Origin: Eledone cirrhosa
Lineage: Eukaryota
NCBI GenBank assembly: GCA_964016885.1
Contig: OZ024740.1
Coordinates: 133,300,001-133,364,000, forward strand
Direction: 5' to 3'
Length of the DNA stretch: 64,000 nt
The notes below the pieces were generated by a model. It saw only the letters and a program-made list of their open reading frames with translations, did no database searches and was not told where the DNA came from. Position 1 is the stretch's first letter. Each line of letters begins with the position of its first letter. Below are positions 1,668 to 52,690 of this stretch, piece by piece. A program made the translations under genes and the position numbers.

Positions 1668-3584
1668 TCACTCACCCTTCGCCTCCTGGGGACCAGGCCG
1701 CACGATTTCCATGGGGGTGTTGGAGGGGTTGTCTGGATGGGTGGTGGTTTCCGGCGGGGTGGGGACGCAGATGTTTGGTGGGGTGGGGTCTGGTGGGATG
1801 GGGGTGTCTGGGGTGGGGAGGCATTTGAGAAGGACGCGGTTGAGTGGTTTCACGCAGGAATTCCCCACATCCTTCTCAAATGTTTCTTTTAGGGACCTAT
1901 AAGTTTGTATAGGGACCCTAATCAGTTTTAGATTCATTTTTTTGCTATTTTTTATAGAGTGGGCGAAAGTTTTCCCTTCGGTGAAAACCGAAGGGTCGTT
2001 CGTAATGGTCTCCATTAGTGTTTTGTTTTCAGTGTTTATGTAAGTGTAAGTGTAATTTTCTTGTGTTGTGTTTGTTTTTGTCTGTAGTTCTTGTGTGTGC
2101 TTTCGTTTTGTTGTAGGTATTTTGTTTTCAGGAGGTGGGGGTTTTGTTTGTGATATTTTTGTTGTTTGTGTTGGTGGTTGTATGTTTGTGGTAGTGTTTG
2201 CTGGTTTTTTGCTTTTGTGATGTCTTTTCTTTCTTTTCGAGCGATGGGGTTCTCCCTCGTCTTCACTGGGTGATGGCGAGATAGCCTCATCTGTTGTATC
2301 GTCTGTGTGATTGGGGAGGGGTATGTCTTGGGGAGCTGTTGTGTCTGTATGTGATTTTGCAGTGGTTTTAGGTGGAGTGAGGTTGGGTGGGACTGTGTTT
2401 GTTGTGGTTATTTTTGTGTGTTGGTGTTGTTGTTGTAGTGGTGGTGTTGGTGGTTGTGTTGTTTTGATGGGTGTTGGCAGAAGAGCCTTTTTTTGGTTCA
2501 TTAGTTTAGGACAGGAAGCCCTCAGGTGACCCCTGCTAAAGCAATGGTAACATGAAGGCCGCCTACCCTCAACCGAAAGGTTTATGTAGGTAAGTCCGTC
2601 CAGGAGTACACGCTGTGGGATCATAGCTATTCGCTCTGGGCTCATTTGCACCAGAACTTCAATGCTAGTCCCATTGAATACATCTCTGGGGGACTTGCCT
2701 ACTGACAGTATTCTGTCTTCATCAAAATTGATGAAGCCGCACAGTATCCACCATATGTTCACCTTTGGTGTGACACTTGTGATTCTGATCTTTTGTGTCC
2801 TTTTTCCCATGTATGTAGGGAAAAAGGTGTACAGGTTGGATACAATTGGCGACACAGAGTAATTTTGGGCCGTCAATTGATCCTTCATCAGTACCGAAAT
2901 ACTCCCAAAAAGTTTGCTTCTTTGAATGAATGCAATATCATTCATTGAATCTTTGAAAACCAGTTCAATATCTTTCTGTGACAATTGGACTGGTTTTCGG
3001 GTAGAATTGGAAACTGTCCTAAAAACTATCGTTTTGAGAGCAGTTTCCTTGCGAATTTCTACCGGAGAATTGATGCTGAAAGCACCATTTTTTTCGAAGG
3101 TGACATATCTCTTAGCGTCCTTTAAAAGGTGTTCAGCATTTGTTATGTCGAGATATATCAATTGTTCTTTCTTTTGAACTTTCTCCGCAAAGGAGATTTT
3201 TGGTTTCTTTGTGGAATCCGTATTGGTGGTGTTGTCATTATTGTTGTTATTCTTGTTGTTATTCTTGTTGTCACCGATGTTGGTATCATCCGTATTTTCC
3301 TTGGTGTTGTTGTTGTCTTTGATGCTGGTGTTATTGGCGTTGTCTTTATTTTTTTCTTTGTTGTTGTTATCATTGTTGCTTTTATCATCATTATTGGTTT
3401 TGCTGTTATTTTTGTTGTCATTGAGCTGTTTGGTGTCATTTGTGTTGTTTGGATGTGAATTCGTTTTTTTATTTTCATTTTGTCTTTCCATCTCTATAGT
3501 ATCTAGTGAAGAAGACGTTGTTGACTGCGAGCTTTGTAGTCTTACCGCCTCTCCACCACCATTATCGTTGGACGCAGCGTTCAT
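1668..3584 (-). CDS. Tx1-type ORF1 (gag-like nucleic-acid-binding protein, CCHC zinc knuckle), 638 aa
   Basis: Open frame; Asn-rich N terminus, central domain ending GRRPSCYHCFSRGHLRASC (CX2CX4HX4C), Pro/Thr-rich linker and KRKKR patch; homologous to ORF1 of copies C, D and E. Confidence 0.9.
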   Translation of the reverse strand: MNAASNDNGGGEAVRLQSSQSTTSSSLDTIEMERQNENKKTNSHPNNTNDTKQLNDNKNNSKTNNDDKSNNDNNNKEKNKDNANNTSIKDNNNTKENTDDTNIGDNKNNNKNNNNNDNTTNTDSTKKPKISFAEKVQKKEQLIYLDITNAEHLLKDAKRYVTFEKNGAFSINSPVEIRKETALKTIVFRTVSNSTRKPVQLSQKDIELVFKDSMNDIAFIQRSKLFGSISVLMKDQLTAQNYSVSPIVSNLYTFFPTYMGKRTQKIRITSVTPKVNIWWILCGFINFDEDRILSVGKSPRDVFNGTSIEVLVQMSPERIAMIPQRVLLDGLTYINLSVEGRRPSCYHCFSRGHLRASCPKLMNQKKALLPTPIKTTQPPTPPLQQQHQHTKITTTNTVPPNLTPPKTTAKSHTDTTAPQDIPLPNHTDDTTDEAISPSPSEDEGEPHRSKRKKRHHKSKKPANTTTNIQPPTQTTKISQTKPPPPENKIPTTKRKHTQELQTKTNTTQENYTYTYINTENKTLMETITNDPSVFTEGKTFAHSIKNSKKMNLKLIRVPIQTYRSLKETFEKDVGNSCVKPLNRVLLKCLPTPDTPIPPDPTPPNICVPTPPETTTHPDNPSNTPMEIVRPGPQEAKGE

Positions 3585-3866: not shown

Positions 3867-6800
3867 ATTTCTATTTATTTGCCACGAGGGCACAAAAGAA
3901 GGGGACAAATACACAGTGGGGGAGTTTACATAAATCGAGTAAAGAAAAAGGAATAACAATAATAATATAATAATAAAAAGTCCTCAAAAGGGAGGGGGCG
4001 TGTTCGGGATTGCACATACCCCCGAAAAGTGTGCAACCCTTTTCGCGGGGGAAGCCCAGAGAGGAGGCGCTCCCCCTTTCCTCTTCACTTCTTCACCTAC
4101 AGAACAATGTAGAGAGAAGGCCCATTTACACGAGCCATTCTCGCTTCTTTCACCCACCTTTCATAAAACTGTCTGGGGCCAAGCACTTCTCTCTCCATCC
4201 TGATCCTTCTTCCGAAGTGGTATCGGAAGAAGTAAACCAGGTGATGGCCGGAGAGAAAGTCACCCGACCTCAGACCTTTCAGGCGCGTCCACTACACAAC
4301 CTCTTTCATCATAGCTATTACGCACAGAAAGACCGCCTCTGCTTCGTTTCTGAAGGGAGGCGGCGGCTTGATGTTCACCACAGACTCGGCGGTTAATCGA
4401 ATCGGCGCCACACGCGACAGCAGTCGTTCGACGTAGCCCCACAGATCGGCAACGCCCGGGCAGTGTACCAGTGCATGCGCAGCGGTTTCCTCGTCGCGCA
4501 CGCATCTGGGACAGATCTTTTTCCCTGGATCCCTGCCCGGGCGCCCGTGTCTGTAGAGCTTTTCTCGAACGGGCAGGGCCCCCCGGTAACACTGCCAGGC
4601 TAGGGACCTCTGGAAGTTGTCCATGGGTCCCGGGCCGAAAGTTCTACCGAACAGGCTGGCCAGTTCGTCCTCCTCCATGCCTAGCGACTCTCCAAGGGTT
4701 TCGTCGCCCCTGCTAGCCGCCAGCTCTCTATACAATGTCGAGGTGGATTCTCCACTGACAGTCGGGTCCGCTTGCCAGATAGCCGTGAGCGCCTGGGCAC
4801 ACTCGGTGTGCCAGTTGCCCAGTTTTCTCGGTCTTTGCTTCACCCAGGATTGCAGCTCGGTGAGCGAGACGAGCTGTGGGAAGGCTCGCCTCACAAACGG
4901 GGCCCACACCGGCTGACCGGTGAGGAATACCTGTAGATGCCGTAGCCTCAATGCGTGCCTACGCATCAACAGCCATGGCATACCCAGCCCTCCTTTCGAA
5001 GGGTGCTGGCAGCAGATGGATCTCCTCACCATGGGAGGCCGCTTCTTCCAGAGGAACTGGAAGAGCATGCGTTCCATGATGGTGATCTTTTCCTTGGGGC
5101 AAGGCACGACGGTCAGGCGGTAGCAGATGACGGACGCTATGTAAGCGCTCGTCACCTCCGCCCGACCTTTCAGTGATAGTTTGCACTTGGCCCACTTCTG
5201 GGTCAGCGCAAACACCCTGCTCGTCACCTCGCCCCAATTTTTCTCCACCTAGAGGTCCGGTCCGAACCAGACCCCGAGCAGCTTCACCGGGCCCTCCGTC
5301 CACCGCCCGACGACACCGTCTAACGGCATCGATTTGCCTCTCCACGTTCCGAGTTGCAAACCGACTGACTTGTCCCGGTTCAGCCTAGCCCCCGTCAGCC
5401 TTTCGTATTCCTCCAGTAAGGTGGCGATCGCCCCGATTTCCGAGGCGTCCGCCACCATTACTGTTACGTCGTCGGCATAGGCCGAGACCGCTTTGTGCAA
5501 TCCCGGTTCCAGGGGTATGCCCCGCAGCAACTCCAACTTCCGCAGCAGTGGCTCGAGAGTCAATACGTACAGAAGGGAGGAGAGGGGGCACCCCTGTCTG
5601 ATGGACCGGCTGATTTGAAACGGCTCCGAGAGGTAGCCGTTTACTTTAATCCTAGAGTAGATGTTGCCACTGTGCATGGCAGAAATCCAGCCCCTGAAAA
5701 CGGGTCCGAAGCCCGCCGCCGCTAGCACCGCATCCAGGTAACCATGGTCGACCCTATCGAACGCCTTAGATTGATCCAAGTTGATCAGGGCCCCACCAAA
5801 TCCGGGTTCGTTGCCAGCCCTCTCTGTGATGTATCGCATGAGGTGGAGGTTGTCGTGAATGGACCTGGACGGGATAGCGCATGTCTGCGCGTCTGCTTCA
5901 TCTTTGAAGGGGGGAGGCGGCTTGATCATTACAATAGACTCGGTGGTCAACCGGATCGGTCCCACCCTTGATAGCAGTTGTTCGACATAGCCCCACAGAT
6001 TGGCTACGCCCGAGCAGTGTACCAATGCGTGTGCGACGGTTTCCTCGTCGCACACGCATCTGGGACAGATCTTTTTGGCGGAGTCCCTACCCGGGCGCCC
6101 GTGTCTGTAGAGCCTTTCTCGAACGGGTAAAGCTCCTCGGTAGCACTGCCAGGCCAGGGACTTCTGGAAGTTGTCCATAGGTCCCGGGCTGAATGTCCTA
6201 CCGAACAGGCTGTCCAGTTCGTCCTCCTCCATGTCTAGGGCTTCTCCGAGGGCGTCGTCGCACTTGCTGCGTACCAGCCCTCTATAGAATGTTGCGGTGG
6301 AGTCTCCACTGATAACCGGATCCGCCTGCCAGAGGGCGGTGAGCGCCTGGGCACACTCAGTGTGCCAGGCGCCCAGTTTTCTCGGTCTTTGCTTGACCCA
6401 GGATTGCAGCTCGGTGAGTGAGACGAGTCTGGGAAAGGTTCGTCTCACAAACGAGGCCCACACCGGTTGTCCGGTGAGGAATACGTAGAGGTGCCGTAGC
6501 CTTAATGCGTATTTACGCATCATTAGCCACGGCATCCCCAGCCCTCCTTTCGAAGGGTGTTGACAGCAGATGGATCTCCTCACCATAGGAGCCCGCCTCT
6601 TCCAAAGGAATTGGAAGAGCGCGCGCTCCATCTTGGTGAGGGTTTCCCTTTGGCAGGGCACTACGGTCAGGCGGTAGTAGATGACGGACGCTATGTAGGT
6701 GTTCGCCACCTCCGCCCGACCTTTCAGGGATAGTTTGCAACTGGCCCACTTCTGGGTCAGTGCAAACACCCTGTTCGTAACCTCCGCCCAGTTTTTCTCC

Positions 6801-8604: not shown

Positions 8605-8828
8605 ATAGATAGATTTCTTTATTTACCATAAAGGCATAAAAAGAAGGGACAAATACAAAGGGGGAGTTTACATATAATCGAGTAAAAAGGGTGTAACATG
8701 AAAATAATCGAAAATAACCTCAAAAGGGAGGGGGCGTGATGGGGGTTGCACACACCCCCGAAAAAGTGTGCAATCCTTTGCCCGGGGAGCACATGGAGAA
8801 GGTGCTCCCCTCTCCTTTACTTCTTTAC

Positions 8829-11800
8829 CTACAGGATGGTATACAGAGAAGGCCCATTTACACGAGCCATTCTCGCCACTATCACCCACCTTTCATAAAA
8901 CTGCCTGTGGCCAAGCACCTCTCTCTCCATTCTTATCCTACTTCCGAAGTGATATCGGAAGAAGTAGACCAGACTATGGCCAGAGAGGAAGTTGCCTGAC
9001 CTCAGACCTTTCAATCGTGTCCACCAAACAACCTCTTTCAACATGGCTATTACGCACAGAAAAACCGCCTTTGCTTCCTTTGTGAAGAGGGGAGGCGGTT
9101 TGATTGTCATCACGGACTCGGCGGTCAATTTAATCGGCGCCACCCGCGACAGCAGTCGTTCGGCGTAGCCCCACAGATCGGCCACGCCCGGACATTGCAC
9201 CAATGCGTGCGCAACGGTTTCTTCGTGACGCACGCATCTAGGGCAAATCTTTTTTGAGGGATCCCTGCCCGGGCGCCCGTGTCTGTAGAGCCTCTCTCGA
9301 ACGGGTAGAGCCCCCAGGTAGCACTGCCAGGCCAGTGACTTCTGGAAGTTGTCCATTGGTCCTGGGCCGAAAGTCCTACCGAACAGGCTGGCCAGTTCGT
9401 CTTCTTCCATGTCCAGCGACTCTCCAAGGGTGTCATCGCCCCTGCTAGCCACCAGCCCTCTATAGAATGATGAGGTGGATTCTCCACCGATGGCCTGGCC
9501 CGCTTACCAGAGAGCCCTGAGCGCCTGAGCACACTCAGTGTGCCAGTCTCCCAGTTTTCCGGATCTTTGCTTGACCCAGGACTGTAGCTCGGTGAGCGAG
9601 ACGAGTCTCGGAAAGGCTCGTTTCACGTACGGAGCCCACACCGGTTGACCAGTGAGGAATACCTGTAGGTGCCGTAGCCTGAATGCGTGCCTACGCATCA
9701 TCAACCACGGCATCCCCTGCCCTCCTTTCGAAGGTTGTTGGCAGCAGATGGATCTTCTCACCATAGGAGGGCGCTTCTTCCAAAGAAATTGGAAGAGCAT
9801 GCGTTCCATGGTGGTGAGTGTTTCCTTAGGGCAAGGCACGACAGTCAGGCGGTAGTAAGTGACGGACGCTATGTAAATGTTCGCCACCTCCGCCCGGCCT
9901 TTTAGGGACAGCTTACACTTGGCCCATTTCTGGGTTAGTGCAAACACCTTGTTCGTAACCTCGTTCCAGTTCTTTTCCACCTGGAGGTCCGGTCCAAACC
10001 AGACCCCAAGCAACTTTACCGGGCCCTCCGTCCAGTGTCCGACGACACCGTCAGGAGGCATCGGTCTGCCTCTCCACGTTCCGAGTTGCAGCCCGATGGA
10101 TTTTTCCCGGTTCAGTTTCGCTCCTGACAACCTTTCGTACTCCTCCAGTAAGGTACATATCGCCTCGATCTCCGAGTCGGTCGATACCATTACTGTTACG
10201 TCATCGGCGTAGGCCGACACCGCTTTGCTCAATCCTGGTTCCAGGGGGATACCCTGCAACAACTCCAACTTCCTCAGTAAAGGCTCGAGAGTCAATACGT
10301 ACAGAAGGGAGGAGAGAGGGCACCCCTGTCGAATGGATCGTATGATTTCGAACGGCTTCGAAAGGTAGCCGTTCACCTTGATCCTAGAACAGATGTGGTT
10401 GCTATGTAAGGCAGTTATCCAGCCTCTGAAAACAGGACCGAACCCAGCCGCCGCTAGCACCGCATCCAGGTAACCATGGTCGACCCTATCGAAGGCCTTA
10501 GACTGATCCAAGTTTATCAGGGCCCCACCGAAGCCGGGTTTGTTGCCAACCCTCTCTATGATGTATCGCATGAGGTGGAGGTTATCGTGAATGGACCTGG
10601 ATGGGATAGCACATATCTGCGCATCTCCCACCAGGCCATCCACGACAAGCGCCAACCTCTTTGCTAACGACTTGACCAAAATCTTTAACTCTGTGTTTAG
10701 TAGGGTTATGGGCCGAAAATTATTTATACTATCCCCCTTGTTCTCGTCCTTCCTCACCAGCGTGACTACGCCCTTGGCTACAGAACAAGGAATTCTCCCG
10801 TTCTGCTGCCAATTGCAGTAGACCGCTTCGAGGAGTTCGGAGAAGAAGACCGACATTGCTAAATAAAGTTCGTAAGGTATACCATCGAGACCTGGAGATT
10901 TGCGTCTGCTGCATTGACTCAGCGCATCTCCGATCTCATCAGCCGAGATTGGTCCCTCGCAGGACTCTGCCTCTTCGCTCGAGAGACGCGGCAGGCCGTC
11001 GAGGTATGGACCGAAATCCGCGCCCCCGCCCGGACCCTCGCCTCCCCCGAACAATCGGGCAAAGTGCCTTTGAAAGGCCTCGCACATCTGCTTAGGCTCC
11101 CGGATCACCCGTCCATCTTCGTCTTGCAACGACCGGATGGTGGATCGATTTCCACTCTTAGCTTCTGTCACGCGGGCCCAGCCAACGGCTTTGGCCCCCT
11201 CATTACCTAGAGCACGTATTTTACTTCGAATGACGCAGCCTTCGTGCTTTGCATCGAAAAACTGGTTCAAGGCCGTCCTCGATGCCAGCACTCTGGCCAC
11301 ATCTTCGCTCTTGATTGCCTCTTCTAATTTTCCTGTTAATTCTTTCTCGTTTCTATTCCTATCGGCAGCTAACATCTTGCTATAACTTATTGATTCTGTT
11401 CTAATCTCTCTTTTGAGAGATGCCCACCAACGGTTGTTGACGATTGCACCCGTCAACCCTCCTTAACTAATCTGCTAATCCGGTTTCTGTAAGTCTCTTT
11501 TGCCGGTAAAGACAAATTAAGTTTCCAGTAACCGGGACCCTGTCTATGTGTTTTCTCGAGATTGACCACGCAGGTCACTAATTTGTGATTCGTGTAGCCA
11601 ACCGTGCGCATTTCTGGACAGCTTAATATGTCCCTATCCTTACTTCTAACTAAGAATCTATCTAAGTACGATCTAGATTGACCACTGTGGTTTCTCCAAG
11701 TCCAGGTAGGCACAGTTGGAAAATCTAGTCGATATCTATCGACCAAGTTAAAACGGTCGAGTAACCCCTTGAGGCTGTTACACCCCCTCTATTAGGACAT

Positions 11801-12264
11801 GCTCCTGCATAGTCCCAACGTGCATCCAGGATGTCATTCCAATCCCCCGCTAGAAGCAGGGAACGCGACGTTCCCAGAAAAGTCTCCAAACGCTGGAAGA
11901 AGTCGGGCCGTTCAGCTCCGAAAGGGGAGTAGACGGCGACCACTCTCAAGGCCGCACTTTCACTACTGCCAACGTCTAGCACCAACAAACGACCCTCCGG
12001 GTCCGAGTGCACAACCTGTACGGCAAGACCCATGTGTTTTTGCAGCAGTACGACAACCCCACCCCCACCTCCAGGTTGACAGAGAGATGCATGCACCTCA
12101 AAGTCATCGAAGGTGGGGGCTAGCTGCCGCACGACGCTGATTCGAGTCTCACAGATAACCATTACATTTATACTACATGACCTGAGGTCATTTAGAAGCT
12201 TTGCTTGCTTCCAAGTTGAGCCCAGGCCACGTGCATTCAAACATCCTACTCTTAACACATCCAT
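8829..12264 (-). pseudogene. ORF2 of copy C (APE-RT-zinc finger)
   Basis: ORF pieces 11725-12264, 11453-11746, 9504-11456 and 8829-9452 are collinear with B and E ORF2. Confidence 0.9.
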
Positions 12265-12297
12265 GTGGGCGGCAGAGCCAAAGGAGAGTGTAGAGAC

Positions 12298-14195
12298 CTA
12301 CCTTTCCGCTTCCCGGGGTTCGGGTTGCACGACTTCCATGTGGTCGGGGGTGTTGGGTGAAGGGGTGTCTTGTAGTGGTGTGGGGTCGTCATTGTGTGGT
12401 AGGGTTGGGGTGTTTGGAGTTGTGTTGGGGAGGGGAAGGGGAGGGGAAAGCTTTTTAGTAGAACGCGGGTTATGGGTTTGACAGAGGATGGTCCTACGTC
12501 CTCCTTAAAATCCTTTTTTAGTTTTTGGTAGAGGTTCATTGGGATCTTTATAAATTTTAAATGTGGGTAGTTTTCTGACGAAACAAAGTTTACACCTTCG
12601 GTTTGTACCGAAGGATTATTGTATATGAGTTCATTTAATTTATTATTGTTTCTGTTGATGTAAGTATAGTGTAATGTCTTTTTTTCGGATGGTGTGAGTG
12701 TTTCGAAGAGGGGAGGGGCAGGTTTGGTTTTGTTTGTTGCTGGAGGGGTGTTTCCTGTTTTGTTGGATTGTGTTGAGATTTGGGTGGGGGTTGTTTGTCC
12801 TTGTGTGTTTTGCACATGTTTTCTTTTTTTCCTTTTAATCTGTCTGAAGGACTCCGTTTCTTCCTCCGAATTCGTTGGGTTATCTTCAGTGTTGGAGGGA
12901 AGAGGTATGTTTGCTGGTAATGTTTCCGTGTTGGTTTTCTTTGTGGGGGAGATGGATGTCACTATGTTAGACTGTGTTGTGTGTTGTGTCTGCGGTGGTT
13001 GTGTTGTTTTATTGAGTGAGAGGTTGGGTGGGCCTGTATTTTGTTTTGGGGTAATGTGTTGTGACTGTTTGTGTTGTGGTGGTGTTGTGGTTTTACTGAG
13101 GGACGGGTTGGGTGGGACTGAGTTTTGTTGTTTGTTTATCTGTTGTGGTGGTGGTGGTGGAGCTGGTGTTGGTAGTAGGGTTTTCTTTTTGTTGAGTTGG
13201 CGACAAGCGGCCTTCAGGTGCCCTCTGCCTGCACAGATATGGCAGGACGGCCGTCTCCCCTCCACGCTAATGTTTATATACCCGTGGTCCTCTAATAGGA
13301 TTCTGTCGGGTATTTGGGCGATGCGTTCAGGCTTCATTTGCACTACCAGCTCTATACCTGTTCCACTGAACGCATTGCCTGTGGTTTTCCCAATGGAAAT
13401 CACGTTGTCATTCACTGGATCGATGAAGCCAGCTATGAGCCAGCAGTAGTCCACATCTGGCATCATTGCATCCAGCCATATGCGTTGAGTTCTTTTCCCC
13501 ATATAAGATGGATAAAAGGTGAAATTTTTCGAACGAATCGGTGACAAAGCACATTTTTTTGCCGCCGATTCGTTCTTCATGATAATTGCTAGGCTTCCAT
13601 ACAGTCTGTCTTTTCTTATGAAAGTGGTTTCATTAAGTACTTCTGTGAGTACTGTTTTGATATCTGCTTGAGAAGGCTGTTCAGGTTTTTTTGTACTGTT
13701 GTTGATGGTCCGAAACTTGACCGTTCGGCTTTCAATGTCTTTGGTGAATTCTTGAGGCATTTTTACCGATAAAATACCATTCTCTCCTTCACTTATGTAT
13801 TGTTTGGCGTCTGTGATCCTTCGTGCCACATCTGAAATATTTTCCGCTATATAAGTCAAAGATTTCTTTGTTTTCTGTGCAAATGAAATCTTGTCGTCTG
13901 CTTTGCTTTCTGATATGGTGTTATTTTCAAATGTTATTTTTGTGTTTGTTGTGTCTTTGTTTGTGTTATTAGTATTGTCATGCAATTTTTCAAATTTTTT
14001 TCTTCGTTGTTGGAATTCGTGTCCAGATTTGTGTTTTCGTCATTTTTTTTTCTCCGCAGATTCGTCTGTTTTTATTTTAATTTTTCCTTCCTTCTCTATG
14101 ACGTTAGTTGGGAAGGAAGGGGGGACTAAAGCGTGCGAGCTTACAACTCTTACCGCTGTCCCCCCACCACTATTTTCGTTCGCTGCGTTTAACAT
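12298..14195 (-). pseudogene. ORF1 of copy C (CCHC zinc knuckle)
   Basis: MLNAANENSGGGTAVR aligns with the A N terminus; in-frame TGA at 14040; CHICAGRGHLKAAC knuckle; frameshift near 12460. Confidence 0.85.
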
Positions 14196-14427
14196 TTCTG
14201 TTAGACGATTGAAATTTTTTGCCGCAAAATTTTTTAAAACAGGTTTTTCACCTCTAGGAGGGGTAAAGATGAGCTGACCCACCGCCTGACAGTTCAGACG
14301 GGGGGTCAAGCTACACAATTGTATCAAAATTAAGTTTGAACTCACAAATTTTCCTCAATAAATTTGAACAAAACTTCTGCGCGAAGTGAATGACATCCAC
14401 ACTGTAGAACAGACGACAGCTAGATTA

Positions 14428-14503
<76 letters not shown>
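14428..14503. repeat. (ATAG)n microsatellite at the 5' flank of copy C
   Basis: Direct reading. Confidence 0.97.
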
Positions 14504-27389: not shown

Positions 27390-30300
27390 TGCATCTTCGA
27401 AATATATATAATGAAACCCAACAGCACTATACGGTCACGTACTGTACAGTAAGCACAAAATCACGTAGGGTTGAAAGAGCCACAGAGGCTGAAATACAGA
27501 AAAGCCTTAGCGTCTGTGTGGCAGCGGAAAACGCATATCCCCCGAGGCAAGAAATATCCCACCATGGATGTGCTTTTTGCCACACCCCAGGAGGCAAAGG
27601 CTCAATCCTTAGTGACCCTAAGGAGCGAGGAAATGGTGTTGGTCCCCTCCTACTGCGGGCAAAAAATTGTGAGGGTCAAACTGACTCATGTCACCCCTGG
27701 GATGGCCCCTTCTTGGCTAGCCGCGTCTGTCCTAGTCGGAATCGAGGAGAAAACAACCGTACTACAAGGGCAGAAAAAAGTACGAGAAGATTGAGATCTT
27801 AATTCAAACCGACCAGGAGTGCATCGAAGCTATACCGGGTGTGATAGACTTCGATAACGGCACTCAACTTCCCATAAGTGTTGAGGGCAAAGGCCCGAAA
27901 TGCTTTCGCTGTGGGTCGATGACTCACCCCAGGGCCTTCTGCAGAGAAGACTCTGAGAAAGGAGAAAACCCCCCTCCTTCCGAAACCGGCTCCACTGCTA
28001 CCAGCAAGAGGACAGCCGGCAAGCAGCGAGAATAGGTCCGTGGCACCCATACCCACGCCACAGAAATCAAGAACAGCAGCAGCAGTGGAAGTATTAACAA
28101 CAACAACAGTAATACCAACTGTAGCTGCAACAGAGACTCCACTGCAAACATCATCAACAACAACAAGTGAAAGAGAGGAGCTGGTACCCCTCCCGGACCT
28201 CACAGAATCGGACATGGAGTGTGAGTTAGGAGTGGGATGGCAAAAGGTCGCAAGAAGGCACAAACGCAGAAGCAGCGCATCGTCGCCTTCGAAAAGGGAG
28301 GGAAGAAATGAAAAAAGGGTAAAGGCTACTGCAAAGAGACTTACAGCAGCAACACCACCAACACCATCACCACCCACACTAGCAATTACCATCACCACCG
28401 GCGGCAACCCCACCACCACCAACAACAACACCTTCAACAACACCACCACAAGCACCAACATCGCAAACACAACAACAAAACAAACACCCAGCAACAACGA
28501 CAAGAAAATAGCAGAACCACACCTCACTCCCAGAAAAAGAATTGCACAGCAATAAATACACACAACAAGAAACCAATGACTTACATAATTGAACACACAG
28601 ACATTTCACAGCACGACTACATAATACCAGCACCAATCAAATCACCAACGAACATAAGACTGGTAAGAATATCATAGAAACAATACACAAACACTAAAAT
28701 GAAATTCCCCAACGCAGTTGGTGATTTCAGAGACCTAGGAGGGACACTCAACCGGAGAGTATACTCGGATATACTCACAGAAGAGCCGACGACCAGCCGA
28801 AAGGACGATTCAACGGTCCCTTTACCAGACGATCAAGGTAAGTGATCCTTTCTCATTTGCCCCGTTCCTGAGCTAACATGGCCGTATTCAGGATCGGAAG
28901 TGTAAATGTGCGTGGCTTGAGCTCAGTTGGAAGCAGGGTCACTTGCTTGACGACCTCAGGTCACTAAACATAGATGTGGTGGCCATCAGCGAGACGAGAA
29001 TCTCCGAAACGCAAGCCTTCGCACCGATCTTCGACGGTTACGAGGTGTACGCATCTCCGAGCCGTCCGGGAGCGGGGGGCGGAGTGGCTGTGTTGTTTCG
29101 GAAAGGCTTGGGTCTCGCCATACGGACCATCTTCCTAGACCCAGAAGGTAAGTCGGTGGTGCTGGAAGTAAGCGGCACCGAAGGCAACGCTTTCAGACTA
29201 GTAGCCGTCTATGCCCCGACAGGGACAGGACGGCCTGTTATCTTTAGACGTCTAGAGACCTCTCTTGGAACGTCCCGCTGTTTAGTGTTAGTGGGCGACT
29301 GGAACGGTATCTTGGATGCCCGCTGGGATTGTGTGAGGCTAGCGGATAGGGGAAGAGGGTTCAAGAGCCTCACCAACCTGCTCAGACGTTTTGAACTGTC
29401 TGACAGGTATCGACAGGATCACCCGAATGTACCAATGTGGACAAGGACAAACCGCATCGGGTCATCCAGATCGTATCTCGATAGGGTATTCTGAAGAGAA
29501 CTAGATAAGGCTAGTATAAGTTGTCCACAATTTAAAATAGTTTACTACAGAGACCACAAATGTGTGATCTGTGAGATCGACATAGACAGACTCCATAGAC
29601 AAGGGCCCGGTTACTCGAAGCTGAACGCATCTTTCCCGGCGCGCAAAGCCTACAGAGACCGGATTAGCGTATTAGTTAAGCGGGCGTCGACAGGAGCGGA
29701 TGTCAACAACAGGTGGTGGTTCGCCCTGAAAAGGGCAATTAAAGTAGAGGGCAATTAAAGTAGGTTGCAAAGGACTAGTGATAGAGGAAAATAGAGTAGA
29801 GGGAGAGCTAGTCAGAAAGCTAGAAGAGACGTTTAGGACAGGCATCGCAATCGACGTGCTTGCGGCAAGATTGGCACTCGACCAATTCTTCAACACAAAA
29901 CAAGAAGTCTGCGTTGTCAGAGCTAGAGGTCTAAAACACGAGGGGACAAAAACCGTCTTATGGGCCCGGGTGGCAGAGGCGCGAAGGGGCAACAAAGCCA
30001 CAATTCAGTCTTTGTCTGACCAAAACGGGTGCGTGATGCTTGAACCCGAGCAGATGTGTGAAGCTTTTCAGCAGCACTTTGCTGAACTGTTCGGGAGTAG
30101 CCGCGGGCCGTATCGGAGATTGGACTTCAGTGCATACATCGATGGACTTCCACGGCTCTCGACGACCGCAGCACAGTGTTGCAAAAAGCCAATAACAGTC
30201 AGTGAAATACGGGAAGCAATGGCTAACTGCACGAGGGGTAAATCGCCAGGTTTGGATTGTCTGCCTACGCTTTATGCATTTATGCCAGACTTTTTCGGTG

Positions 30301-32535
30301 ACCTCTTGGCAGATATCTACTGCAGCTGGCAGCAGAACGGGAGCATTCATATTTTTGTGAGCCGGGGAGCGGTGGGGCTGTTGAAAAAAACCCCGAACAA
30401 GTGGGATGTTATCGATATCTTCAGGCCCATAACCCTGCTAAACGCAGAGTTGAAGATTTTGGCCAAGGTGTTAACGACGAGGTTGGCGCTTGTCGTCAAG
30501 GGTCTGGTGGGAAAGGCGCAGAGATGCGGCATTCCAGACAGATCCATACACGACAACCTCCACCTCATGCGATACATCATAGAGAGGGTGGTTAAGGAAC
30601 CTGGCACGGGTGTGGCCCTAGTCAACTTGGATCAATCCAAAGCATTCGATAAGGTCGACCATCGGTACCTGGCGGCGGTCCTCGAGGGAGCCGGTTGCGG
30701 CCCTTTTTCAGGGGTTGGATCGCTGCGATGTACAGCGACATCTGCTCAGTTGTGAGGGTGAACGGTCACCTGTCGCAGCCGTTCAGCATCGTGCGCTCGG
30801 TCCGCAAGGGTTGTCCCTCTCGTCCCTATTGTACGTGTTGGCTCTCGAGCCGTTACTGCACAAACTGGGGGCGAACTAGGATGCGGGAAATCCGACGCGA
30901 ACTAGGATGCGGGAAATCCGAGTCGGCTTACGCTGACGACGTCACCGTGGTGGTGTCGAGCACCAGACAAGTCCAGATACTCGGCACCGCTCTCAAGGAA
31001 TACGAAGCGGTGACAGGAGCAAAGATAAACCAGGGAAAGTCGGTGGGGTTGCAGCTCGGCACCTGGAGAGGCAAGTCCATGCCGTCCGACAGCGTCATGG
31101 GGCGTTGGACGGATGGACCGGTTAAATTGCTCGGTGTCTGGTTCGGACCGGACATCCAGATGGAGAAAAACTGGAACGTGGTAACGAGCAAGTTGGCCTC
31201 CCTCACCCAGAAATGGGCAGAGGGGAAGCTGTCCCTGAAAGGCCGGGAGGAGGTGGCGAATGCGTACATCGCATCCGTGATCTGCTACCGCCTCACCGTC
31301 GTCCCTTGCCCCGGCCCATCTCTCACCAAAATGGAGCGCCTCCTCTTCCGCTTTTTGTGGAAGGGACGCGCTCCCATGGTCAGACGATCCATCTGCTGTC
31401 AACACCCGTTGCGTGGAGGACTGGGCATGCCATGGTTATGATGCGCAAACATGCGCTGAGGCTGCGACATCTCTGATGCTTACTTGACGGTGAACAGGTG
31501 TGGTCGCCGTTCGCCAGACACGCCTCCTTGACGGAGCTGCAGTCCTGCGCCAGAAAAAGACCGAGGGATAGCGCTTGGAAACTAAAATATCTCCAGGCGC
31601 TCACTGCCCTCTGCCAGCAAGGCACCAGTATCGGTGGAACATCTACCTCGGCGTTCTACAGATGACTAGTGGAGGGGAAGAGCGACGACGTTCTCGGAGT
31701 ACGTTCAGCCCAGGGCCTATGGATAACTTCCAAAAATCCCTGGCCTGGCAGTGCTACCAGGGAGCGTTGCCGGTTCGAGATAAGCTCTACAGGCACGGAA
31801 GTGCCGTCAGCCGAGCTTGTCCGAGATGCGCGCAGAGCAACGAAACCGTCGTGCACGCTCTCGTTCAGTGCCCGAGCATTGCTGACTTGTGGAGCTATGT
31901 CGAACAGTTGATGTCGCGTGTAGGACTGATCCGGTTATCGACTGAGTCCAATGTGCAGATGGTCACGCCGTCTTCCTTCGAGGAGGAAGGGCAGTAGGTT
32001 TTCATCTGCCTGGTAGCCATGACAAAAGTGTATGTGTGGTGAATAAGGTTGAAAGGGTTAAAGACAGATACTTTCCTCTTCGGCGAATCCCTAATTAAAT
32101 GTTTTAAGTTAATTAGGGTGGAGAGGCAAGTGCTGCTTTCTAGCAAGTTTGTTGAATGGTGGGTGAATGTAGCGAGAATGATCCGAGTGAACGGGACCGC
32201 TCTGAATATACGCCTGTAGTTTGAGAAATGGAAAAATTGAGAGAGGGCGCTTGCGCTGGTAGTCAGGGTGGCCGTGGTCTTCTGTGCGGTTTTCGCCACG
32301 AGTAACCCTCAGAGGTTTCCCCCCTATTTGGGAATTTTTTCATTGTTTCAATTTTCATTTTTATTGTTTATATATATATATATGTTTCTATGTCTTTTTT
32401 TTCTTTTTTTATATAAATAATAAAAATATTTACACGCACAAAACCCACATCGTACCGTCCTGTGCCGTCCTGTGCCGTCCTGTGCCGTCTGTAATGTTTT
32501 TCTTGATGTCAGCCCTTGTGGACAATAACGAAAAC
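27390..32535 (+). mobile_element. Tx1-like copy D, degenerate, with (TTA)n tail
   Basis: ORF1 remnants (CFRCGSMTHPRAFC, end 28845); ORF2 remnants 28878-32219 (LVGDWN, LDQSKAFD, YADD, CPRC); 3' end GCCCTTGTGGACAATAACGAAAAC then (ATT)n. Confidence 0.9.
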
Positions 32536-35500: not shown

Positions 35501-36167
35501 GCATTCATCTCCCCAGTGGCCGTATCTCTGCTCCAGGTATTATTTATTTCATCATTCAGATCATTGTCTGCTTCGGATAGTTCCTCCGTTCTCTCGACCT
35601 CTTTTACCCTTATTTCCCACTGGCTCATTTTCCTGGCATACTCCACCCTCAATTTCCAACCTAATCTCTCTGCTCAGTTCCTCCAGTTCCAGCTCATTTA
35701 TCCACCCATTAGTTCTTATTACCTGAGCCTGACCTGCCAATTTTTGTTCATCTAATTTAAATAGACCAATCTCGTTCCAGATGTTATGCATCCGTTTCCT
35801 ATAGCCTTTCTCCCTGGGGTTACTCTTTATGTAGCATTGCATAACAGTTCTATTCAATTCTTTCGTCCAGTTGGTTCTGATCCCTTTCCTTCTTCTTCTT
35901 CCTCCGCCAACAGCAGTATTTGGTTCACAGCCAGGTACCTGCTGCTGAGCCAGGGAGCACCTGCTGGGTGAGAGTCTGTCACATGACATTCCAGTCTCCA
36001 CTTCACCGTTATTCGAACTCTTTAGGTTCGACATTGAAACACACTTATCGAGGATTGGTGAATGTATGGTTACATAACCACCGGTGATTTTAGTGTGGCA
36101 CTATCACGCTGTAGACGAATATCAATAAACAAACAAACAAATAGGTAAAAAAAAACACAAAACCCCA
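32566..36167 (-). mobile_element. R4/Dong-like RLE non-LTR retrotransposon, family 1, near full length, decayed
   Basis: Single ORF 36034-32643 in pieces: KSPGPDG, WIDYKKAF, GIFQGDSLSPLLF, YKYLG, HIVSEC, HNRPDL, EKINRYQDL, PIVIGALG; (TAA)n at both ends. Confidence 0.9.
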
Positions 36168-36182
36168 ATTATTATTATTATT

Positions 36183-36672
36183 GTTCTTTAAGTCTCAGTC
36201 ATTGATGTTAGTTAACTGGAAAGTTTGTTGAACTGAATATCAAGCCTCTACGTGCAGCCTCAGATATTCCGGACGTATCGGAGGGTTCTTGCTGTTCCCA
36301 GCAAGCATACATTTTGAAGCGTTCCAAAACGTGTGGCGGGGCCAACTTTCTTTAACCATCCCTGGAAACTTTTTGAGATAGTACCTAGTGCGCCTATGAC
36401 AATCGGGACCACTTTGACTTCATGGCAGTTCCAAATCCTTTTTACCTCCCACTTTAAGTCCTGGTATCGGTTAATTTTCTCCCTCTCCTTCTCTTGCACT
36501 CTCGTGTCGAATGGGCAGGGCACATCCACAATCAGGCACGATATTTTTTCTTTGTCCACAACCACCAGGTCAGGTCTATTGTGTTTCAGTTTCTTGTCTG
36601 TCTGTATTCTAAAATCCCACAGCACCTTCACCTGATCGTTTTATATCACCGACTCTGGCTTATGCTCATAAG
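36183..36672 (-). mobile_element. R4/Dong-like family 1, 5'-truncated copy (RLE domain and 3' UTR)
   Basis: Closely matches 32566-33052; (TAA) tail at 36168-36182. Confidence 0.9.
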
Positions 36673-36764
36673 TGTATATATATACATACACAGAGTGTGT
36701 ATATATATACATACACATACACTTATATATATGTATATATTATTATTATTATTATTATTATTAT

Positions 36765-38240: not shown

Positions 38241-38285
38241 TTATTATTATTATTATCATTATTATTATTATTATTATTATTATTA

Positions 38286-41945: not shown

Positions 41946-44900
41946 GGAGACCTACGTAGTAAATCGTATCATCGTGAGCTCCGCAAAGGTTTGTTATTTC
42001 CTCTTGTTAAAAATTGCCATTTATGGAAATTTTTTATTGTTAACTATATATAAGCGCACATACATTGTTTTCCGAAAAGGACACCCAAAAAGATTGGGGC
42101 CTTGTGCCCAAAATTTAAACTTTTATGATTATCAAAAAAATTCTTTGAAAGAAAAATGGCTAATTCACCACTGCACCAAGCAGCTGAAAGCCTTTCTCAC
42201 AAATTAACACCTCACACATACTACGTCTGCCAACACACACAGTTTAAGCACTAGCAATATTTTTAATTTGTCTCAGGCAGACATTCATTTGCCGCCATTA
42301 CCAATGACTGCAGGTGTTAAAGCCGCCACCACCACCACCACAGCGACAACCCCCACCCCCACCACAACCGCGACAACAGAAACAAAAGGAAAAAGTAAAT
42401 CAACTCGTGATGTCGAAATATTTTCAACCAAAATGGACTCTCCCAAACCGAACTTCACTGACGTCACCACCACCACAACTGAAACTAAAATTAATAATAA
42501 CAAAAATGACGATAACAACAACAACAACAATGACATTAAAAAAACCACCCTGAGTTTTGCCAGAGTAGCAAAACAGTGCGAAGCATATACGGTAACTCAG
42601 GAGGATTTAGAAAATGCCAAACAAATGGTAAAGAAAGATGGGTACAGGGTCAGCCTCACCTCCCCACCTAATAAAATGGAGCATCGGCGCCTATGCACCG
42701 TGTCGTATAGAACAATAAATGTAAAATCGCGCCGAGTGGACGGGCATCCGAGTCCCAAATCCAAAAAGCTTTGGGACATGTGTGGGCAAGAAAAACCCAC
42801 ATCAGACGTGGGCAAAAGTATGGAACCGTGGACGTGTTCTTTGAAACACCAGAGGAGGCTAGAGAACACTCCATGGCCCCATTAAGAAGTGACGACTTCA
42901 CACTCGTCCCAAGCTATTGTGGCCAGAGACTCGTAAAGATCAGGGTGACCCACGTTCCACCGGCCATCGAAATTCCCTGGCTAATAGCGGCTGTCCTCGC
43001 CGGCATCGAAGCCAACACGAAAATAATAGCAATAGCAAAAGAAAAGCAGGAGAACTGGTCCGGATCTGGGATGGAGCTCCTGATCCAAGCGGACCAAAAA
43101 AGCATTGAGGAGATCCCAGGGGTAATAGACATCACTGACGGCAGCCACCTCACGGTAATTGTCGAGGGCAGAAGACCTAGGTGTGTCGTTTGTGGTGAAG
43201 GAACCCACCTAAGGGCTTTCTGCCCTCAGGCTAAAAGGTTGAGGCCACCTCTCCTACCCACCCCAGTGACACAACCATCAACACCACCAGTAGCAGAGAT
43301 GGCAGCAACAACTGTAGCAGCAACAACAGAAGCAACTATAACAGCAAACCCCAGCAACAGTAGCAAAACCAACACCACCACCACCACCAGCAAAACCAAC
43401 ACCACCACCACCCAACGCTTCAGAACTAGCACCAGCGCCTACACCATCCACCACGCCACAACCAAAACTAACGGCTGTGGAGGATTTTCCACTCCCCGGC
43501 CTATCACAACTGGAGACAGATTGTGACGACGAGGAGTGGGAAACGATATCCGGAAAAAAAAAAGAAACCAAAAAAGAAAAAAATTCTCTTCCTTCCCCCT
43601 CCAAAAACAAAATACAGAGGGAAACAAATAAATTAAGAAACAAAAAAGTTAGGACAGATATGCCACTATCCACACCAGCATCACCAACCCCATCAACCCA
43701 AACACCAACACCATCACCATCATTAACCCCAACACCACCATCACCTACACCACAAAAGTCACCAAAATGCGAAACAGAAACAAACCCACAACAAACGCAA
43801 ACAAAACAAAACAACCAAAACGATACACACTACACAGCAATAAATTTGAACAACAAGCAATTATTACACTACATCCAACACAACACCAGCATCACAGAAA
43901 GAGACTACACAACAACCCCAAAATTCACACCACCTCCACACATACAAATCACTCGCATCACACAGAAAACGTACATGACACTAAAACAAAAATTCCCCAA
44001 AGACATCGGAGACTTCCGACAAGCACTCTCCAGGAGGATTTATAAGGACATCCTTCCTGAAGAGGCCACAAGCAGTGAAAAGGATGGAAAAACCGTCCTT
44101 CCCCTACGAGAAGTAAGGTAAGTGGTCTTTCCCATCTTTTCCACTCCTTTTCAACATGACCACACTCAGAATAGGCAGCATAAATGCGCGTGGCTTGGGG
44201 TCGTCATGGAAGCAGGGCCACCTGCTCAACGACCTCAGGTCACTAAACATAGATGTAGTGGCCATCAGCGAGACCAGAATCTCCGAAGCACAGGCTTTCG
44301 CACCGATCTTCGGCGGCTACGATGTGTACGCATCTCCCAGCCGTCTGGGATCGGGGGTGGGTGGGGGGGAGTTGCTGTGCTTTTCCGGAGAGGTTTGGAT
44401 CTTGCCATACGGGCCATCTTCCTGGACCCAGAAGGTAAGTTGGTGGTGCTGGACGTGACCAGCGGAGACGGCCAAGCTTTCAGGTTAGTGGCCGTCTATG
44501 CCCCGACAGGAGCAGGGCGGCCTGATTTCTTCCGGCGTCTGGAGACCTTTCTTGGAACGTCCCGATCTTTAGTGTTAGTGGGCGACTGGAACGGGATCTT
44601 AGATGCACGCTGGGATTGTGTGGGATTAGTGGATAGGGAAGGAGGGTGCAAGAGTTTTGAACTGTCTGACAGGTACCGAATGGATTTCCCGAATGTACCG
44701 AGTGTACCAATGTGGACTTGAACAAATCGCATAGGGTCATCCAGATCATATCTAGATAGAGTCTTTTGTAGGGAAATAGATAGGTCTAGCATAGGCTGTC
44801 CACAATTCAAGATAGTCAGCTACACGGACCACAAATTCGTGATCTGTGTGCTTGACTTAGATAGGCGTCATAGACGAGGACCCGGCTACTGGAAGCTAAA

Positions 44901-47812
44901 CGCGTCCTTACCAGTGCGCAAGGCCTACAGAGACCGGATTAGCGAACTAGTTAAGCGGGCGTTGACGGGGGCCATCGTCAACAACAAGTGGTGGTTTGCT
45001 CTGAAAAGAGCAATTAGAATAAAGTCCATTATGTTTAGTAAGACTTTAGCAATAGAGAAAAATAGAGCAGAGGGAGAATTAGTTAGAAAATTAGATGAGG
45101 CGCTTAGCAAAGGCATCGCGACCGACGCACTTGCGGCGAAATTGGCCCTTGACCAATTCTTCAATGCAAAGCACGAAGGCTGCGTTGTCAGAGCTAGGGT
45201 GCGTGCTCTCAGACACTAGAGGACGAAAGCCGTTCAATGGGCCCGAGTGGCGGAGGCGCGTCGTGGCAACAAAACCACGATCCGGTCTTTGGTGGACCAC
45301 GACGGGCGCATGCTACTCGATCCCGGGTAAATGTGTGAAGCTTTTCAGCGACACTTCGCTCAACTGTTCGGAGGCAGTGGCGGGCCGGATCGAGGGATGG
45401 ACTTTAGTGTCTACCTCGACGGACTGCCGCGGCTTTCGGCCACTGAGGCGGAGTGTTGCGAAAAGCCGATAACAACCGCTGAAGTACGGGATGCAATGAC
45501 TAGTTGCACAAGGGGTAAATCGCCTGGTTTAGATGGTCTGCCATATGAACTTTACGTACAAATGCCAAATTTGTTCGGAGGCCTCTTGGCGGACGTCTAC
45601 AGCAACTGGCAACAGAACGGGAGAATTCCCAGCTCTGTGAGCCGAGGAGCGGTGGCGCTGCTGAGAAAGGATCCGAACAAGGGGGATAACATAGATAATT
45701 TTAGGCCCATAACTCTGCTAAACACAGAGTTCAAAATTTTGGCCAAGGTGCTAGCAAAGAGGTTGGCGCTTGTCGTTGGTAGTCTAGTGGGAGAGGCACA
45801 GACATGCGCCATTCCCGACAGATCCATTCACGACAACCTCCACCTCATGCGATACATCGTAGAGAGGGTAGCTAGGGAACCTGGCACGGGTGGGTCTTTG
45901 ATCAATTTAGATCAGTCGAAAGCCTTCGATAGGGTCGACCATCGTTACCTAGCGGCAGTCCTGAGGGCGGCTGGCTTTGGGCCCGTCTTCAGAGGCTGGA
46001 TCGCTGCCATGCACAGCGACATCTGCTCTGTAGTGAGAGTGAACGGTCACCTTTCGGAACCGTTCAACATCATGCGCTCGCTCCGCCAAGGATGTCCCCT
46101 CTCGTCCCTATTGTACGTATTGACTCTCGAGCCATTACTGCACAAACTGGAGACGTTGAGGGGGGTCCCGCGCGACCCAGGATGCGGAAGATCCGTGTCA
46201 GCATATGACGACGTTGTCACCGTAGTGGTGTCGAACGCCAAGCACATCGAGGCGATCGGCACTACACTAAGAGAATACGAAGCGGTGACAGGAGCAATGA
46301 TCAACCAGGAAAAGTCAGTGGGCCTGCAGCTCGGCACCTGGAGAGGCAGGTCCATGCCGTCCAACAGCGTCGTCGGGCGCTGGACGGACGGACCGGTTAA
46401 ATTGCTAGGGGTCTGGTTCGGTCCAGACCTCCAGACGGACAAAAACTGGGACGAGGTGACGAGCAGGGTGGCTTCTCTCACCCAGAAATGGGCCGAGAGG
46501 AAGCTATCCCTGAAAGGTCGAGCGGAGGTGGCGAATGCGTACATCGCATCCGTCATCTACTACCGCCTGACCGTCGTACCTTGTCCTAAGCCCCGCCTGA
46601 CTGAGCTGGAGCGTTTGCTCTTTCGCTTCTTGTGGAAGGGACGCGCTCCGATGGTCAGGCGGTCCATCTGCTGTCAACACCCGCTACGTGGAGGGCTGGG
46701 CATGCCGTGGCTGATGATGCGCAGACACGCGCTCAGGCTACGACATCTCCACCTCTTCCTCGACGGTGATCAGGTGTGGTCGCCGTTTGCAAGACGCGTT
46801 TTTCCCCAGCTCGTCTCCTTGACGGAGCTGCAGTCCTGGGTCAAGCGAAGACCGAGAGGGAGCGCTTGGAGACTGGAATGTCTTCAGGCGCTCACAGCCC
46901 TCGACCAATCGGGCAATGTGATCGGTGGAAACTCCACCTTGGCGTACTATAGGGGATTAGGGGAGGGGAAGAGCGACGACGTACTTGGAGAAACTCTAGG
47001 CGTCGACGAAAATCAACTAGCCAATCTCTTCGGAAGGACTTTCGGGCCGGGGCCTATGGACAACTTCCAGAAATCCCTGGCCTGGCAGTGCTACCGAGGA
47101 GCTTTGCCAGTTCGGGATAAACTCTACAGGCATGGAGGTGCCGTCAGCCGGGCATGTTCGAGATGCGCGCAGGGCGACGAAACCGTCCTGCACGCACTCG
47201 TCCAGTGTCCGAGCATTGCTGACTTGTGGGTTTATGTCGAACACCTGCTGTCACGTGTAGGACGGATCCAGCTATCAGCTGAGTCCATCGTGAGGATTGC
47301 CCCGCCCCCTTCCTTTAGCCTGGAAGGGCAGGCAGTTTTTATCTGTCTGGTGGCCATGGCGAAAGAGATAGTATGGTGGACACGTTTGAAAGGGCTGAAG
47401 ACGAGCACTTACCTCTTCGGTGATGCCCTGATTAACTTTTTCAAATTTCATTTGAAAAGGAAAATCAGGGTAGAGAGGGAAGTGCTCTCTTCCCAGCATT
47501 TTGTTGAAAGATGGGTGAGAGAAGCAAGTATGGCCCGAATGAATGGGCCTTCTCTGAGTATGTGTCTGTAAATTAAAGGTGGAAAACTGGGAGAGGGCAC
47601 TTGCCCTGGTGGTCAGGGCCACTGTGGTCTTTTAATGGGCTTTCTCCACAAATGTCGCTTGGAAGTCTCCCCCTATTGGGGAATTTTTCTTTGTTATTTT
47701 ATTTCAACCTCTGTTTTTTTACACGCAGAAATGCTCATTTGTACCGTCCTGTATTGTCCTGTACTGTCCTTAATGTCTACTTTATGTGAACCCTTGTGGT
47801 TAATAAAGAAAA

Positions 47813-51700: not shown

Positions 51701-52690
51701 GGACCCTGTTTATGTGTTTTCTCGAGATTGACTACGCAGGTCACTAATTTGTGATCCGTGTAGCCAACCGTGCGCATTTCTGGACAGCTTAATATGTCCC
51801 TATCCTTACTTCTAACTAAGAATCTATCTAAGTACGATCTAGATTGACCACTGTGGTTTCTCCAAGTCCAGGTAGGCACAGTTGGAAAATCTAGTCGATA
51901 TCTATCGACCAAGTTAAAACGGTCGAGTAACCCCTTGAGGCTGTTACACCCCCCTCTATTAGGACATGCTCCTGCATAATCCCAACGTGCATCTAGGATG
52001 TCATTCCAATCCCCCGCTAGAAGCAGGGAACGCGACGTTCCCAGAAAAGTCTCCAAACGCTGGAAGAAGTCGGGCCGTTCAGCTCTGAAAGGGGAGTAGA
52101 CGGCGACCAGTCTCAAGGCCGCACCTTTACTACTGCCAACGTCTAGCACCAACAAACGACCCTCCGGGTCCGAGTGCACAAACTGTACGGCAAGACCCAG
52201 GTGTTTTTGCAGCAGTACGACAACCCCACCCCCACCTCCAGGTTGACAGAGAGATGCATGCACCTCAAAGTCATCGAAGGTAGGGGCCAGCTGCCGCACG
52301 ACGCTGATCCGAGTCTCACATATAACCATTACATTTATACCACATGACCTGAGGTCATTTAGAAGCTTTGCTTGCTTCCAAGTTGAGCCCAGGCCACGTG
52401 CATTCAAAAATCCTACTCTTAACACATCCATGTGGGCGGCAGAACCAAAAGAAAATGTAGAGACCTACCTTTCCGCTTCCCGGGGTTCGGGTCGCACGAC
52501 TTCCATGGGGTCGGGGGTGTTGGGTGAAGGGGTGTCTTGTGGTGGTGTGGGGTCGTCAGTGTGTGGTGGGGTTGGGGTGTTTGGAGTTGTGTTGGGGAGG
52601 GGAAGGGGAGGGGGAAAGTTTTTTAGTAGGACGCGGTTTATGGGTTTGACAGAGGGTGGTCCTACGTCCTCCTTAAAATCCTTTTTTAGT
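48782..52690 (-). mobile_element. Tx1-like copy F (same family as C), 5'-truncated within the end of ORF1
   Basis: Highly similar to 8615-12520; ORF2 52431-48997 with stops and frameshifts; TSD TATAAAAACATAGA at 48760 and 52691. Confidence 0.93.

Follow-up and report, generated by a model that had tools for sequence, protein, structure and literature searches.

The DNA analysed here, a stretch of 64,000 nucleotides of contig OZ024740.1 from Eledone cirrhosa (positions 133,300,001 to 133,364,000, referred to as the window), contains several long interspersed nuclear elements (LINEs; copies A–F) at whose five junctions between the first and second open reading frames (ORF1, ORF2) a consensus 5′ splice site overlaps the ORF1 stop codon. 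Comparison of these elements with their relatives strongly supports constraint on this motif at the nucleotide level. We favour a process in which the conserved site is a working donor that would be spliced to an acceptor of varying position near the 3′ end of the element, so resulting in an mRNA that carries only ORF1, and we give this reading a probability of about 0.5.

The donor motif at the ORF1 stop

A pattern search for the ORF2 start in the 3.0 Gb genome that holds the window (G000) recovered 10,165 copies. When the first 100 listed were inspected by eye, GTRRGT was found 25–45 nt upstream of the ORF2 start in 92 of them, a one-base variant in four, and neither in the remaining four. 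A set of 24 elements (20 representatives and four window copies, with 62–100% identity in ORF2 and about a dozen subfamilies among them) was scored by a simple count of matches to U1, without a trained splice-site model. By this measure no other GT site equals the donor in 14 of the 24, and in the other 10 a single site scores as well or better, out of 238–342 GT sites per element. The site had been picked in each element by searching 95 nt for a donor-like pattern; the constancy of its own columns is therefore circular in part, but the same does not hold for its rank.

Alignment columns outside positions −2 to +6 of the donor are mostly 39–67% conserved. Variation in the donor itself stays within the U1 consensus, with positions +3 and +4 exchanging A and G only. 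The distance from donor to ORF2 start (25–45 nt) and the codon phase (two phases) both differ across the representatives, and the donor is retained through changes of the ORF1 frame between sister subfamilies. As a background, 36 of 5,289 other stop triplets in the same elements (0.7%) have a donor score of at least 7.5 within −8 to +5.

The sequence-only reading with which this analysis began had listed donor motifs at 1675 (−), 12301 (−), 28838 (+), 44118 (+) and 52468 (−), and all five are present. They represent four related families rather than five, as C and F are 97% alike and belong to one family. The two codon phases that it described were recovered: A and D are in phase 1, E and F in phase 2. 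Phase 1 of copy A characterises a real subfamily, seen in many of 100 listed A-like copies. Copy C itself reads 16 codons past the donor because of a 1-nt frameshift near 12442, but among 30 loci of the C/F family the stop lies at the donor in phase 2 in 28, and GTAGGT is kept in all 30.

A sister lineage, with an ORF2 protein 40% identical, occurs as tandem arrays (loci L193–L233 and L240; L-numbers denote individual loci or copies sampled) on contigs of a bacterial bin that are evidently mis-binned animal DNA. A tree of unnamed relatives places it, on a long branch, with the G000 families (support 100/100). In 36 of 38 overlapping loci of one of its two families, AAG/GTAAGT lies just past the ORF1 stop; since this sequence is non-coding, codons cannot explain the donor there. 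Both families possess a strong donor 15–41 nt past the ORF2 stop, kept in all 37 3′ ends, and a top-ranked acceptor 183–277 nt into the 3′ untranslated region (UTR); their ORF2 TAG is a poor acceptor, with 9–10 pyrimidines in 19. Each unit of this lineage carries an intron-like stretch in its 3′ UTR, with a strong donor and a strong acceptor, and this stretch is never lost; a donor is also present in the 5′ region of some units. More distant relatives, counted where a full ORF2 was present, have no donor near either stop (0 of 34 for the ORF1 stop, 0 of 37 for the other). What characterises the lineage is therefore the placing of a donor at a stop codon, rather than an acceptor located on the stop of ORF2.

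Taken across both lineages, the comparisons demonstrate, at the level of sequence, that a U1-complementary motif at the ORF1 stop has been kept while frame, spacer and host changed. The constraint postulated from the window thus extends further than had been claimed, to the genomic copies and to the sister lineage. We regard this lineage-wide sequence constraint as real, and we have found no earlier description of it in print. A full-text literature search returned no report of a conserved donor at a LINE ORF1 stop; most subscription papers and the Repbase entries were outside its scope, so an earlier description is possible.

Two other arrangements were considered and rejected. A donor past the ORF2 stop, in the style of the sister lineage, reaches the score of 7.5 in only one of 18 G000 elements. 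A short intron within the spacer would require a YAG ahead of the ATG, which is present, 34–38 nt from the donor, only in A-like and D copies, so that it was discarded as a general solution. Two further observations concern the variability of the ORF1 end. A pair of A-like copies (G000:C1:29216577-29216687 and 29252564-29252674) share a short deletion that removes the donor, and may reflect a local duplication or a small donor-less subfamily. In E-like families (ORF1 ends L255–L274) a second motif, resembling a D-like ORF1 end, lies about 45 nt upstream of the donor (2,437 matches); a short duplication that displaced the stop and altered the phase would fit this arrangement.

Elements of the window

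Copies A–F are LINEs that consist of ORF1 and an ORF2 encoding endonuclease, reverse transcriptase and zinc finger, the latter frame being supported by Pfam matches. Features are listed below by position and strand.

8610..14429, minus: copy C, a two-ORF LINE of full length flanked by (TCTA)n repeats; here both ORFs are disrupted
12298..13982, minus: ORF1 of C; the family stop TAG is at 12300–12298, and the 1-nt frameshift near 12442 is private to this copy
12296..12304, minus: 5′ splice-site consensus AAG/GTAGGT overlapping the ORF1 stop of C, the best among 298 GT sites of the element
12261..12295, minus: pyrimidine-rich spacer ahead of the ORF2 ATG in C (75–92% pyrimidine in the 18 representatives scored)
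8829..12260, minus: ORF2 of C (endonuclease, reverse transcriptase, zinc finger), body of the candidate intron
8884..8892, minus: second donor-like site of C, AAG/GTGGGT, 61 nt before the end of ORF2, encoded by an E-R-W-V motif and also found in the sister lineage
8829..8852, minus: candidate acceptor of C, a pyrimidine tract followed by CTGTAG, the TAG being the ORF2 stop; first of 102 YAG sites
8618..8828, minus: 3′ UTR of C, with AATAAA at its end
1670..1678, minus: donor of copy A, AGG/GTGAGT, phase 1
4097..4120, minus: ORF2 end of copy B (5′-truncated and composite), CTGTAG
28835..28843, plus: donor of copy D, AAG/GTAAGT, phase 1
32196..32219, plus: ORF2 end of D, CTGTAG; its tract is weak, 12 of 19 bases being pyrimidines
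44115..44123, plus: donor of copy E, AAG/GTAAGT, phase 2
47566..47571, plus: ORF2 end of E, CTGTAA, a stop without an acceptor
47705..47728, plus: candidate alternative acceptor within the 3′ UTR of E, a T-rich tract with CAG, 157 nt past the stop
52463..52471, minus: donor of copy F, same family as C
48997..49020, minus: ORF2 end of F, CTGTAG

ORF2 carries an APE-type endonuclease, a reverse transcriptase and a C-terminal zinc finger; its best solved relative is human L1 ORF2p (E 5e-50) and its closest named relative is from Argonauta hians (64%). The closest named relatives of ORF1 are from Octopus sinensis and O. bimaculoides, so that these relatives point to an octopod as the likely host. 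In the intact copy L101, ORF1 has 587 amino acids and a CCHC-type motif, and look-alikes carry zf-CCHC (scores 0.89–0.92). The ORF1 frames in the window have no Pfam matches, and a search for ORF1 relatives gave none by word search and seven by HMMER. (TCTA)n adjoins A, B, C and F, and (ATT)n flanks E on both sides, as judged by eye from few copies. We consider the elements to be Tx1-like, since the separate ORF1, the ORF2 domains and the microsatellite targets fit; the tree contained unnamed relatives and no named Tx1 reference.

Head-to-tail arrays of full-length copies with a short microsatellite between them are common (L034–L036, L055, L056, L193–L233). The window has no Rfam or tRNA matches. 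It also holds frames with reverse transcriptase of a different retroelement (33600–41930, minus), with a 1.5 kb tandem duplication (36738–38242 and 38260–39763, 96.5%).

Candidate acceptor, recreated stop and search for joined copies

The sequence-only reading had placed the acceptor on the ORF2 stop itself. The four CTGTAG ends on which this was based (4097, 8829, 32219 and 48997) are all present, and ORF2 of copy A, which lies outside the window on the left (L031), terminates in the same way. When the YAG sites of each element were ranked by pyrimidine content, the ORF2-stop TAG was first or second of 99–117 sites in all seven elements of the A/C clade. The last Leu codon of ORF2 is CTG in 14 of 14. 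It had further been claimed that joining donor to acceptor recreates a stop at once. A stop within two codons would indeed be produced in 9 of 11 TAG-bearing types and in 8 of 11 usable A-like copies, compared with 3.6% for a random background (nine of the 20 A-like loci had no usable 3′ end and were left out). Among the A-like copies it is the phase-1 A subfamily that gives the recreated stop, while three phase-2 copies do not.

Several observations weigh against the favoured reading. A pyrimidine tract with YAG on the ORF2 stop is found in the A/C clade, is weak in D-like elements and is absent from E-like families and the sister lineage. The stop-site acceptor ranks only 3–12, with many ties, in L102, D, L109 and L098. 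The E-like families, the most abundant group with about a third of the listed copies, end in TAA and lack a stop acceptor in four of four 3′ ends, so that the poor fit of copy E, already suspected from its CTGTAA, proved to be a family-wide property. A CAG 157–164 nt into the 3′ UTR is ranked second in these ends, but this does not show compensation, since families that have retained the TAG possess such sites as well. Even within the A/C clade, another AG lies 7 nt upstream of the acceptor in five of seven elements, and a branch-like motif, sought with a crude pattern, is absent from all seven. The acceptor tract is also encoded by conserved G-P-S-L-Y residues, and synonymous conservation in the last ten ORF2 codons (0.79 vs 0.66 ± 0.09, rank 99 of 1,137 windows) is not exceptional. 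The recreated stop fails in L101, L104 and 3 of the 11 usable A-like copies, and shared ancestry reduces this evidence to two or three independent events, just as it leaves few independent events overall. One of the two sister families has no donor at the end of ORF1.

Copies without ORF2 belong to the same side of the balance. A genome search for ORF1 joined to the 3′ UTR exactly at donor and acceptor, set beforehand as a test, found none. The searches used exact-match patterns, those for F1 and D-like elements had no exact denominator, and the filter applied to C/F, F1 and E-like joins detects a join only when it has a base other than G at the fifth position and other than T at the sixth. 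In the C/F family there were 0 joined copies against 610 exact unjoined junctions, and the single copy with other bases after the end of ORF1 is a mutated unjoined one. Pattern searches for F1, E-like and D-like elements returned no join to a 3′ end; 12 of the 14 E-like matches were read as small local changes, and among five checked by BLAST, L254 proved to be a local rearrangement, while no element matched L253. No joined copy occurs among the first 100 listed of 1,161 A-like matches, the best 30 of 1,137 ORF1-end loci or the best 30 of 1,733 3′ UTR loci. The suggestion that an ORF1-only RNA might be mobilised in trans is therefore unsupported.

Contigs on copy C from four runs of unrecorded kind yielded 85 joints; none of the 15 listed links donor with acceptor, and a donor–acceptor junction was observed in no data examined. 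A contig of one such run (X2) crosses the ORF2 stop unbroken (8620–9098), which carries no weight given the unrecorded kind of the run, and neither does the depth in X2 of 75–90 for ORF1 contigs vs 32 for the first ORF2 contig, as contig depth cannot rank the parts. The RefSeq ORF1 protein XP_036364761.1 of Octopus sinensis (P0074) ends in residues that resemble a translated D-family 3′ UTR, and may be a spliced model or due to chance. It has no close relatives in G000 (at most 38%), and the long matches examined are spacer deletions or ordinary copies.

The lack of joined copies does not refute splicing. An RNA without ORF2 would lose the cis advantage that is established for L1, and cis preference could explain why no joined copies are found. 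Considering all of these points, the "precisely excisable" intron was not demonstrated. Only in the A/C clade is it plausible that the acceptor coincides exactly with the ORF2 stop, and for C/F and A the identification of that very TAG as the acceptor is a possibility to which we lean slightly less than to its opposite. In other families the acceptor probably lies elsewhere. Scoring of splice sites over many families, which had been proposed as a check, gave a divided answer: GTRRGT is kept and the terminal YAG is lost in E-like elements.

Several additional features were noted near the end of ORF2. The second donor-like site (8884–8892, minus) sits in a stretch of high synonymous conservation (codons 1119–1129, about 0.90). 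It precedes the ORF2 TAG by 61 nt and could be a competitor for the same acceptor, with loss of the last 20 codons of ORF2. Right past the ORF2 stop there is a purine-rich run (57–97% purine), followed by hairpin-like inverted repeats (8770–8810, minus, and in other 3′ UTRs), which together could be a splicing enhancer or a structure for 3′-end recognition. The highest synonymous conservation in ORF2 is found at codons 560–572 of L101 (0.93–0.97, mean 0.66), suggesting an RNA or DNA element in the reverse transcriptase region.

Alternatives, known systems and significance

Of several other explanations for the conserved donor, the one that survives best is that U1 small nuclear ribonucleoprotein binds the site without any excision, so suppressing premature polyadenylation or controlling the nuclear handling of an intronless full-length RNA, and that the YAG of the ORF2 stop is a stop codon only. 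This would account for a donor that is near-universal beside an acceptor that is labile, for the lack of joined copies, and for the post-ORF2 donor kept in every sister-family 3′ end along with an intron-like stretch that is never lost. An AATAAA lies about 270–350 nt upstream of the donor in most representatives, and U1 has this second role in the Copia element EVD (PMC5580714). We nevertheless consider it unlikely, if by no means negligible, as it leaves unexplained why both lineages have donors no further than about 50 nt from stop codons and why strong 3′ UTR acceptors follow the sister-lineage donors. The upstream AATAAA is also missing in copy A, L104 and L106, and ORF2 contains few poly(A) signals against which protection would be required.

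Coupled translation of ORF2 is known in L1 and SART1, and the motif with its pyrimidine spacer might similarly serve termination and re-initiation at ORF2, its likeness to a splice donor being incidental. The spacer is always short and pyrimidine-rich, and the context at the ATG is conserved. A translation signal would not be expected to vary only within the U1 consensus or to ignore codon phase, and the same motif is found past ORF2 in the sister lineage, where nothing re-initiates, so that we regard this explanation as quite unlikely. It is very unlikely that the motif has no function and arose by chance from a G and a stop codon, followed by inheritance in related families. G followed by any stop does give GTRR, all G000 families descend from one ancestor and one sister family is without the donor; however, the background is only 0.7%, the motif survives while neighbouring bases, spacer length and frame change, and it is present outside an ORF at 40% protein identity. 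Finally, it is extremely unlikely that the donor is spliced mostly to scattered acceptors within ORF2 or in downstream host exons, giving attenuated or chimeric RNAs and no defined ORF1-only mRNA: no acceptor position is conserved across families and human L1 uses varied cryptic sites (PMC5860796, PMC2896524), but harmful cryptic splicing should be purged rather than conserved, and no C or F1 genomic copy was found rejoined to anything past the donor.

In the process that we favour, U1 would bind the consensus at the ORF1 stop, and splicing to an acceptor near the 3′ end would excise ORF2. That acceptor would be the ORF2 TAG in the A/C clade and probably a YAG in the 3′ UTR in E-like families and the sister lineage. 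The product would be an mRNA for ORF1 only that ends with the element's normal poly(A) signal, its purpose presumably being to make ORF1 protein in surplus; ORF2 protein would come from the unspliced RNA only, which would also be the template. With a junction on or just past the stop, ORF1 would be almost unaltered and, if the 50-nt rule holds in molluscs, the mRNA would escape nonsense-mediated decay. The spliced RNA would not be retrotransposed at a level detectable in our searches.

The closest parallel is provided by the Ty1/Copia elements EVD and BARE1, for which a spliced subgenomic shGAG mRNA is established by experiment and U1 also blocks early termination (PMC5580714). There too, one transcript serves as template and encodes the enzyme while a spliced one encodes the structural protein, the stop is at or just past the junction, and the U1 site may have a second role (PMC5580714). 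Ty1/Copia elements differ in being long terminal repeat (LTR) elements with a single gag-pol frame and a short intron, the removal of which eliminates the protease and is coupled to early termination (PMC5580714); the elements described here are non-LTR elements with two ORFs, a candidate intron of 3.5 kb and a normal poly(A) site, and are known from sequence alone.

Splice sites within the RNA of a two-ORF LINE are likewise known from human L1, in the SpIREs and SpORF2. Reported there are donors in the 5′ UTR, removal of promoter or ORF1 sequence, inhibition of retrotransposition by splicing, and spliced genomic copies (PMC5860796, PMC2896524). By contrast, the donor here stands at the end of ORF1 and seems to be under selection, and spliced copies were not found. 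In its layout the predicted RNA corresponds to HAL1, ORF1-only derivatives of L1 that retain the 3′ end; HAL1 are non-autonomous genomic families (PMC5753468), whereas a search of G000 for such copies at the predicted junctions found none. Many Tx1-clade elements reside in microsatellites, for example Kibi and Koshi (PMC4494074), with which the present elements share the endonuclease, the reverse transcriptase and insertion in microsatellites; they differ in their targets, here (TCTA)n and (ATT)n. Our literature search found no description of a splice signal in Kibi or Koshi, and the available part of the Octopus vulgaris repeat annotation lists L1-Tx1 families and makes no mention of splicing (PMC13282606).

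We tentatively propose that a whole lineage of animal LINEs may have adopted the spliceosome in its expression programme, with stop-codon donors yielding an ORF1-only mRNA (in the sister lineage, two donors would have the choice of one 3′ UTR acceptor) and only unspliced RNA being copied, in a Copia-like manner that would have evolved independently; this wider proposal falls somewhat below even odds.

The excess of LINE ORF1 over ORF2 protein is usually ascribed to inefficient translation of ORF2. If our reading is true, a donor maintained by selection where ORF1 stops, and present in at least ten thousand copies, would represent a second solution to the ORF1:ORF2 imbalance, and splicing, otherwise regarded as harmful to non-LTR elements, would be of use to them. 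Even without excision, strong donors in their thousands will probably influence host splicing wherever these elements lie in introns.

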